Source: Candidatus Colwellbacteria bacterium (lineage in GTDB: Bacteria > Patescibacteriota > Minisyncoccia > UBA6257 > Colwellbacteraceae). Taken from it: 64,000 nt of DNA. The position numbers were made by a program, and so were the translations under genes. Of this stretch, positions 16,152-16,541 are shown piece after piece. Below the pieces are notes generated by a model. It was not told the origin of the DNA. It saw nothing but the letters and a program-made list of their open reading frames with translations, and made no database searches. The stretch lies in assembly GCA_028710275.1 (NCBI GenBank), contig JAQTUL010000001.1:73031-137030 (forward strand). Reading direction: 5' to 3'. The first letter of the stretch is position 1, and every line of letters begins with the position of its first letter.

Positions 16152-16199
16152 CTATTACTATTGTAAATCTTTTAGATCTTCTAGGTTGATTATTTTAGA

Positions 16200-16450
16200 A
16201 CAAATGTTCGGAGTTCGGACGATCGAAGTGTTTCCGAAACCAGAAAGTTTTTCGGCGGAGAGGCGACCTCTCTCACAAATATTGAGAGAGTTTGATATAC
16301 TTTTTTCAATTCCAAATAGTTTAGAAACGGGATTCTCTCTGAACTCCGAAAGTCATAATCCGAAAAGAATGTGTGATATAGTATGTTTTAAATTCTTTCG
16401 GAGCGGTTTTCGGAGATGATCTCCGAAAACCCGAAAGTCAAAATTTCCGA
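16200..16450. repeat. Intergenic cluster of at least 8 short GC-containing 'TTCGGAG / CTCCGAAA / TTCCGAAA' elements, including the palindrome 'ttttcggagatgatctccgaaaa'
   Basis: Read directly in the 390-bp divergent intergenic region between the NADAR-macro gene and the C2H2 paralog. Confidence 0.6.
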
Positions 16451-16477
16451 AAATTTCAGTAACAATCATTGATAAAT

Positions 16478-16538
16478 AGTATCAATCGTTGATCAATAGT
16501 TATAAAGAGTTGATAACTATTGATCAACGATTGATACT
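16478..16538. promoter_or_regulatory. Perfect 26-bp inverted repeat with a 9-nt spacer, ending 3 nt before the ATG of the C2H2 gene
   Basis: 'agtatcaatcgttgatcaatagttat' ... 'ataactattgatcaacgattgatact' are exact reverse complements. Confidence 0.7.
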
Positions 16539-16541
16539 GAA

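Follow-up and report, generated by a model that had tools for sequence, protein, structure and literature searches.

An ordered repeat-and-palindrome module upstream of a multi-copy zinc-finger gene family in an uncultivated giant virus

Gene control in giant viruses is believed to depend on a single short motif some tens of bases ahead of each gene, and for most of these viruses we know of no multi-site control regions or replication origins that have been defined in sequence. In iteron plasmids (P1, F, R6K) and in the common region of geminiviruses, the protein that binds a set of phased short repeats and an inverted repeat is encoded by the very gene whose promoter they overlap; a conserved hairpin is found close by, and each lineage has repeats of its own within a conserved architecture. 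The homologous regions (hrs) of baculoviruses often adjoin bro genes. They act as enhancers and as origins of replication (PMC4535591), and in Mimiviridae a "hairpin rule" places palindromes at the 3′ ends of transcripts (PMC4402537). Here we describe a spacer of 390 bp at positions 16152-16541 of a 64,000-nucleotide stretch of DNA, the whole of which is referred to below as the window. The spacer is flanked by two divergent start codons, and the ATG that borders it on the right opens a gene for a 282-aa C2H2 zinc-finger protein of a multi-copy family (16542-17390, plus strand). The metagenome-assembled genome (MAG) that contains the window was deposited as "Candidatus Colwellbacteria bacterium", yet it carries giant-virus core genes and, for that reason, is a mis-binned, uncultivated member of the Nucleocytoviricota (the nucleocytoplasmic large DNA viruses, NCLDV). 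The feature in this spacer is real, non-random and conserved, and is best described as akin to the repeat-and-palindrome control regions or hr-like regions of large DNA viruses and to autoregulated initiator genes.

Like the hrs, the element is a dispersed, repeated non-coding block in a large DNA virus, in which short repeats surround palindromes (imperfect ones in the hrs); it has a dimeric viral binding factor, here a putative one, and its neighbour belongs to a multi-copy family of DNA-binding genes. Ten copies of the module were found, and the MAG has at least 14 family genes, with more in JGI, ENA and Logan assemblies. However, there is no sequence similarity to the hrs, which consist of tandem 60-70-bp units with one palindrome each, whereas the NCLDV element is a single ordered module followed by copy-specific repeats, whose position 5′ of one gene and orientation towards it do not vary. 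The likeness to iteron and operator regions lies in helically phased repeats and an inverted repeat that overlap the promoter of an adjacent gene for a putative DNA-binding protein, an arrangement that is present here. The difference lies in the protein and in its setting. The protein is of the C2H2 coiled-coil type, and Pfam searches of the family gene returned C2H2 fingers only, with no recognised replication initiator (Rep/HUH, RepA winged helix or SF3 helicase), in a double-stranded DNA giant virus with at least 14 copies per genome and no nonanucleotide nick site.

Conservation and anatomy of the upstream module

Eleven family loci were compared: that of the 282-aa protein (whose gene is called the window gene below), a distant paralog within the window (45432-46325, minus strand; 29% identity, E 9e-22) and nine further loci. 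The module lies upstream of ten of these genes, namely the window gene, the distant paralog and eight of the nine further ones, in four independent data sets (the window MAG, JGI 3300050206, ENA ERZ19026211 and Logan runs). Upstream spacers at the eight further loci and the distant paralog are 303-562 bp long and have an identical order of blocks: TTCGGA sites (A); CGGC and then a palindrome, H1 (B); GGATATAC, an A/T tract and CCAAATAGTTATAGAAA (C); a box, CTCCGAAAGTCATAA, whose inverted partner 30-45 nt further on completes a second palindrome, H2 (D); TCCGAAA sites (E); and copy-specific repeats (F), followed by the ATG. An nhmmer profile of blocks B-D recovered every copy (E 3e-25 to 3e-14) and, over about 125 kb, gave matches at family genes alone. 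Box D keeps a set distance from the centre of H1, +62 to +70 nt in all loci. Across the six closest loci the core has an identity of 0.73, while four-fold sites in the neighbouring genes reach 0.47; for nine loci the values are 62% and 49%, with the caveat that gapped alignment of AT-rich DNA somewhat inflates non-coding identity. Similarity stops at the stop codon of the family gene and the 3′ flank is not conserved. The heptamers of blocks A and E occur in both orientations, follow a defined map and are clustered only in the module. The module is thus non-coding, conserved above the level of synonymous sites, found upstream of family genes only and copied along with the gene; the elements noticed in an earlier, sequence-only reading of the spacer are conserved in relatives, in both order and spacing, upstream of ten family genes.

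The spacer itself had been singled out in that reading by its length and its repeats. Spacers in the window have a median of 75 bp, and the 390 bp found here are unusual indeed. Eight or more CCGAA-core elements in 250 bp had been claimed, and we count nine exact TTCGGA/TCCGAA sites in 245 bp (16207-16451), as against 57 in the whole 64 kb; the Poisson probability of this clustering is 5.8e-13, and the maximum across 500 first-order Markov simulations was no higher than five sites per 250-bp window. Two variants of the heptamer, TTTCGGCGG at 16250 and CCCGAAAG at 16430, accompany them, and the palindromes quoted in that reading are present as well. Block A, the 5′ heptamer cluster (16207-16258, plus strand), comprises TTCGGA at 16207 and 16214, TCCGAA at 16233 and the variant at 16250, with a majority of sites oriented towards H1; such a cluster also precedes H1 in L001, L003, L027, L028, L030 and L033. 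A small palindrome, GAGAGGCGACCTCTC (16258-16272), overlaps the left arm of H1. H1 itself (16268-16290; CTCTCTCA-n7-TGAGAGAG) is the conserved centre of the module and is found in all ten loci. It is followed by the conserved linear block C (16291-16343, plus strand), with GATATAC, a T6 tract at 16301-16306 and CCAAATAGTTTAGAAA at 16312-16327; the block contains invariant columns in the multi-locus alignment, and the nhmmer match spans 16255-16368 (E 3e-25). Box D (16344-16358) and its inverted partner CTTTCGGAG (16395-16403) enclose a TATA-like loop to make H2, which has perfect 23-24-bp arms in L027 and L030 and is absent from L003 and L002. Block E, the 3′ heptamer cluster (16397-16453), includes a perfect palindrome at 16405-16431 with 13-bp arms, GGTTTTCGGAGAT/ATCTCCGAAAACC, composed of two inverted heptamers (z = -6.6). 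The segment nearest the left-hand neighbour, a 1451-aa NADAR gene (11796-16151, minus strand) whose ATG borders the spacer, is not part of the module: positions 16152-16206 lie outside the nhmmer profile match and show no alignment between loci, and they presumably hold that gene's own promoter. No conserved open reading frame (ORF) was found in the spacer. A small protein gene was considered and rejected, because the 71-codon ORF at 16204-16419 exists in this copy alone and is not kept in the other loci.

Between block E and the ATG lie the private, copy-specific repeats (16458-16538). Here TTGATCAATAG-type sequences recur with a period of 10-11 bp (16469-16527) and are grouped into three units of 21 nt and into a perfect inverted repeat of 26 bp. 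The arms of the inverted repeat (16478-16503 and 16513-16538) are complementary at 26 of 26 positions around a 9-nt loop and stop 3 nt short of the ATG at 16542, just as had been described. The structure is unique in the window, where it is the longest perfect palindrome by a factor of two, and when folded as DNA it has an energy of -25.9 kcal/mol (z = -12.4). The sequence-only reading had treated it as a feature in its own right. The inverted repeat is real, but it is this copy's version of a family-wide feature: Tandem Repeats Finder reports a period of 10, 11 or 20-21 in the last 100 nt before the ATG in nine of the eleven family loci, at -100 to -10. The units are unrelated in sequence from one locus to the next (TTGATCAATAG at the window gene, TCACGGAATC at the distant paralog, and GTTAAAGTTG, TGTTGAATTC, AATCTTTACA, AATTCCTTAA, TTATGATATA and others elsewhere). 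Nine of the ten arrays with a period of 10 or 20 in the 125 kb lie at family genes, and the remaining tandem repeats have coding periods. A further appearance of the private repeats at other places in each locus was considered and rejected; the distant paralog alone shows it, past its stop codon.

The private repeats bracket a promoter-like motif. At the window gene this is TATAAAGAG (16501-16509, plus strand), at the apex of the inverted repeat and 39 nt before the ATG. TAAAGA occurs at most 70 nt upstream of 9 of the 49 window genes, where 1.95 would be expected, and it stands at -27 to -39 in five family loci (the window gene, the distant paralog, L002, L032 and L033). The common viral promoter was considered as the promoter of the spacer and rejected, being absent from it. 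About 14 of 50 genes have that octamer, AAAAATGA, at a distance of 26-67 nt upstream. Its 15 copies are all on the strand of the genes (for example at 7473, 8988, 9658, 11710, 19019, 37017, 44862, 48259 and 60665, all on the minus strand), and it is probably this virus's version of the Mimiviridae early promoter AAAATTGA. A second motif, AAAGTGAwTTT, recurs upstream of further genes.

The paralog at 45432 and its repeat arrays, which had also been pointed out from the sequence, are real, and the tie between the two loci goes deeper than was claimed, since the paralog has the same module and not arrays alone. Its module occupies 46326-46722 on the minus strand (nhmmer match 46708-46610, E 3e-14), with H1 at 46676-46703, TCTGAAA/TTTCAGA variants of the heptamer, a palindrome at 46514-46544 and TAAAGA at -27. 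Its upstream private array of TCACGGAATC-type units, with a 10-bp period, is a tandem repeat at 46358-46426 (minus strand). A downstream private array of CGGAAT/GCGAAAT units lies just after the stop codon (45349-45421) and includes the perfect palindrome AAATTTCGCGGAATTCCGCGAAATTT at 45390-45415. No other family locus was seen to have private repeats both before and after its gene.

The zinc-finger family and a proposed two-tier control region

The product of 16542-17390 is predicted to consist of two C2H2 fingers, a coiled coil (residues 66-128) and a conserved C-terminal domain (152-280). The AlphaFold2 (AF2) model, which used a 92-sequence alignment (an earlier 24-sequence model was poor in the C-domain), has a mean predicted local distance difference test (pLDDT) of 92 and shows fingers at 1-65, a single 63-residue helix at 66-128, a linker and a compact alpha/beta domain at 152-280. 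The zinc ligands (C4, C7, H20, C27 and C45, C48, H61, C65) are nearly invariant. The Pfam zf-C2H2 score of this copy is under the cut-off, and that of its relatives is over it; the ligand pattern, the beta-beta-alpha fold of the model and Foldseek all identify a C2H2 protein. Foldseek matched the N-terminus to DNA-bound tandem C2H2 fingers and to a Zif23-GCN4 dimer on palindromic DNA with probabilities of 0.9-1.0. As in the Zif23-GCN4 chimera (PDB 1llm), a design that reads inverted half-sites, and the two-finger peptide of Tramtrack (2drp), two C2H2 fingers in the model precede a dimerising coiled coil. In contrast to those proteins, the fingers are joined by a linker of about 20 residues and not by TGEKP, the fourth zinc ligand is Cys (C2HC), an additional conserved C-domain is present, and the structural E-values are weak.

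A profile search with the C-domain returned 1116 cluster representatives of the same architecture, among which no names and no Pfam domain were found for the C-terminal part. Predicted structures of the same overall shape come from many giant viruses (Klosneuvirinae, Marseilleviridae, CeV, AaV and Tupanvirus; BFVD). Pacmanvirus has multi-copy C2H2 genes, in at least seven copies and with no function given, at an excision boundary (PMC11788076). The multi-copy C2H2 genes of other giant viruses share the full-length protein architecture, and we found no description in the literature of a conserved module upstream of them, their DNA not having been compared here. Within the family, the helix of finger 1 is conserved (pairwise identity 0.60) and that of finger 2 is hypervariable (0.28). 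The paralog P0004 (PHG66_04565, 446 aa), which lies outside the window, is extended at its N-terminus by about 120 aa that contain a motif like that of PD-(D/E)XK nucleases (PDDEXK_9, E 0.001, short of the cut-off), and some structural relatives in other giant viruses bear the names of GIY-YIG or HNH nucleases.

The reading that we tentatively prefer is that the spacer is a DNA-level cis-regulatory module of the downstream zinc-finger gene, including an operator, which would be bound by dimeric proteins of the family. The module joins 10-bp sites (W-T-Y-TCCGAA-A) whose orientation is free to two palindromes and an A/T tract, all with fixed spacing, and ends in copy-specific repeats whose period of one helical turn brackets the TAAAGA promoter-like motif. 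Sites one helical turn apart are what cooperative binding on one face of the helix requires. Such an arrangement could be a control region of two tiers, in which the shared sites and palindromes would serve a conserved reader and the private phased repeats would be the operator. The family proteins, as putative coiled-coil dimers with two DNA-binding fingers apiece, could themselves be the readers of these sites. The shared heptamers might then act as a family-wide upstream element, for cross-regulation or activation, and the private repeats as an operator around the core promoter, which at the window gene would be the 26-bp inverted repeat with the promoter motif at its apex. Each paralog would control its own transcription through its private operator, most likely by repression. 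A suggestive co-variation, in a single case, may link protein and site: the distant paralog has a different finger 1 helix and has TCTGAAA in place of TCCGAAA.

Several points weigh against this proposal. The virus is uncultivated, and the binding and regulatory steps are all inferred. The Foldseek matches to the fingers are weak by E-value (0.07-0.2). The protein P0032, encoded at L030, has no intact finger 2 and yet a strong private array, so that a rule by which finger 2 reads the private repeats cannot hold generally. At L029 the family gene has merely 55 bp upstream, in which blocks A-E are missing and the ATG-proximal repeats are kept; the shared module is therefore not indispensable. 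The compensatory changes in H1 described below fit an RNA or a cruciform as well as they fit a site for a dimer, and the palindromes of this virus normally mark the 3′ ends of genes. Finally, multi-site enhancers are, to our knowledge, not known for giant-virus RNA polymerases.

Alternative explanations for the module

The sequence-only reading had offered four interpretations of the spacer: a regulatory hub, an origin-like element, a structured noncoding RNA and a decayed miniature inverted-repeat transposable element (MITE). The first fits best; the origin-like element is a less likely possibility, and the last two find no support in the comparisons made here. Whether the module acts as DNA or as RNA can be approached through its palindromes. 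Over all ten copies, 94% of the cells of H1 are paired, and two pairs have changed together from T-A to A-T in L002, L033 and the distant paralog. Such compensatory changes, together with the fact that the stretch from H1 to box D is the best conserved part, would suit either a small noncoding RNA gene, running for instance from H1 to H2 and ended by a hairpin, or a zinc-finger mRNA with a long structured 5′ leader. RNAalifold, however, finds H1 as the sole consensus helix, with nine pairs of which two covary, and the arms of H1 are CT/CA dinucleotide repeats in which a register shift of 2 pairs well too. H2 is missing from two loci. Several covarying helices with strand-specific signals, as expected of a structured RNA, are not what is seen: both strands fold equally well beyond shuffled sequences (z = -3.9 and -4.5), the stems are all Watson-Crick without G-T pairs, the T6 tract of block C is replaced by A6, and so lies on the other strand, in L033, and the heptamers stand in both orientations. 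Rfam 15 has no family for the spacer; models of microRNA precursors match the inverted repeat only, with scores that do not exceed 45 bits where the thresholds are 70-140, and at gathering level the window yields two group I introns, both located elsewhere, and nothing else. A tRNA or other known RNA in the spacer was rejected on the basis of these searches, as was an antisense target, the module having no complementarity to other sequence in the window. On balance a double-stranded DNA element read by proteins is favoured over RNA, and we consider an RNA-level element improbable.

The location of the palindromes keeps the possibility of a small transcript alive. Perfect palindromes of 10-13 bp occur in nearly all spacers of the window that hold the 3′ end of a gene, about 20 in number (for example 6035-6064, 18977-19004, 21593-21620, 44244-44273 and 56645-56676), and almost nowhere else, and a rule like that of Mimiviridae for transcript ends seems to apply in this virus. 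H1 is of that size; it comes right after a stop codon in the distant paralog, and at L002 it lies near the upstream gene, which has its own hairpin. In contrast, in seven of the ten loci, 16152-16541 included, the module is flanked by the starts of two divergent genes, a place at which mRNAs do not end and no palindrome follows a stop codon, and the 26-bp inverted repeat and the 23-24-bp arms of H2 are twice the usual length and have heptamer arrays alongside. Palindromes between two gene starts are out of place under the hairpin rule, and could for that reason mark an unannotated transcript.

A replication origin, or an origin combined with an enhancer, dispersed in at least 14 copies in the manner of hrs and read by the zinc-finger protein as a site-specific binder that might recruit the primase-helicase, is the alternative to which we give the most weight while still judging it unlikely. 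The anatomy is of the kind seen at origins: a palindrome in the centre, an A/T tract next to it and, on both sides, binding sites that face each other. The palindromes are long and perfect, reverse-strand nhmmer matches reveal a pseudo-symmetry around H1, and the dispersed copies each adjoin a gene of a multi-copy DNA-binding family, as hrs do beside bro genes. Neither GC skew nor gene orientation shifts at 16 kb or at 46 kb, however, and no solo copies turned up in the nhmmer search of about 125 kb. The module is always 5′ of the gene, in one orientation and at a fixed distance, which is needed by an element linked to a promoter and not by an origin. The three hints that tie the C-domain to the D5/C962R primase-helicases are all below significance (hhalign probability 1%). 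The more specific proposal, that the modules are dispersed origins or hr-like origin/enhancers and that the C2H2 coiled-coil proteins are origin-binding proteins, tethered by private phased repeats and recruiting the primase-helicase through a D5N-like C-domain, is distinctly improbable.

Module and gene might instead form a mobile cassette, selfish and of the homing or transposon-like kind, in which the repeats would be the recognition ends, of which the decayed MITE would be a version. The family does have many copies in unrelated gene neighbourhoods, the distant paralog carries private repeats on both sides, P0004 has its nuclease-like extension and some structural relatives their nuclease names, and the pacmanvirus genes stand at an excision boundary (PMC11788076). 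The features of a MITE or DNA transposon are nevertheless missing: there are no terminal inverted repeats, no conserved 3′ flank beyond the stop codon at which similarity ends, and no gene-independent copies in the 125 kb. Most members, the product of 16542-17390 among them, have no nuclease or transposase domain, and the copies are old, with 50-65% amino-acid identity and saturated synonymous sites. A cassette of this kind is very unlikely. The last alternative is that the spacer has no function and was carried along by gene duplication. Duplicated genes do bring upstream DNA along, and short tandem repeats arise readily by slippage. This explanation is already disfavoured, to the point that we give it little credence, because the core is conserved well above four-fold sites although the proteins are only about 60% identical, the spacing of the blocks is preserved, the palindromes are kept through compensatory change, and the 10-bp period recurs with unrelated unit sequences.

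Genomic setting and significance

The window is AT-rich (G+C about 38%). Its giant-virus hallmark genes encode a D5/C962R-type primase-helicase with an intein (52017-56492, minus strand), a split RPB1, a capping/VP39-like enzyme and EsV-1-7 cysteine-repeat proteins. The RPB1 gene (29855-36394, minus strand), whose relatives are all metagenomic proteins, is split by two group I introns (32781-33081 and 34210-34516; Rfam RF00028, 93.2 bits each), which flank a GIY-YIG-like ORF at 33116-33994 (Pfam E 2.6e-4), and its downstream exon has an intein with a LAGLIDADG domain as well. Two of the longest apparent spacers of the window are these introns, and 16152-16541 and 46326-46722 (390 and 397 bp) are consequently among the longest true ones. 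The DNA polymerase B of a related virus (L003, 1-3569) contains an intein too. Two genes carry long tandem repeats in frame: at 28800-29623 a 72-bp unit is repeated 11.4 times within a 361-aa ORF, and at 22020-23425 there are 45/90-bp units in the gene for a 1181-aa DUF4082 protein.

At NCBI the exact protein encoded by 16542-17390 is PHG66_00415, filed under "Candidatus Colwellbacteria bacterium" on a contig of 152,625 bp. As deposited, the protein (251 aa) begins 31 codons after the ATG at 16542, the start that all homologs support. An EsV-1-7 cysteine-repeat gene adjoins the family gene tail-to-tail, directly past it, both in the window (17392-18972) and at L027 (3987-4250); because of this shared arrangement, L027 may be the positional counterpart of the window locus in a related virus. 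DNA scans of three public collections with 15- and 18-mers of box D gave chance matches only, as judged by nhmmer and tblastn, and protein-based scans for family loci found none in IMG/VR, JGI metagenome contigs or GTDB genomes. So far the element has been seen only in metagenomic viruses of a narrow group.

An ordered block of binding-type sites, about 300 bp long and as strongly conserved as coding sequence, that is tied to a widespread and unstudied zinc-finger family (with over 1000 cluster representatives) is out of the ordinary for giant viruses. If the origin reading were true, these modules would be the first sequence-defined origins, and the family members the first initiator proteins, for this large group of viruses. 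The module and its protein make a concrete protein-DNA pair that is directly testable, and across the family, a natural series, the specificity of DNA binding may have diversified in step with the target sites.

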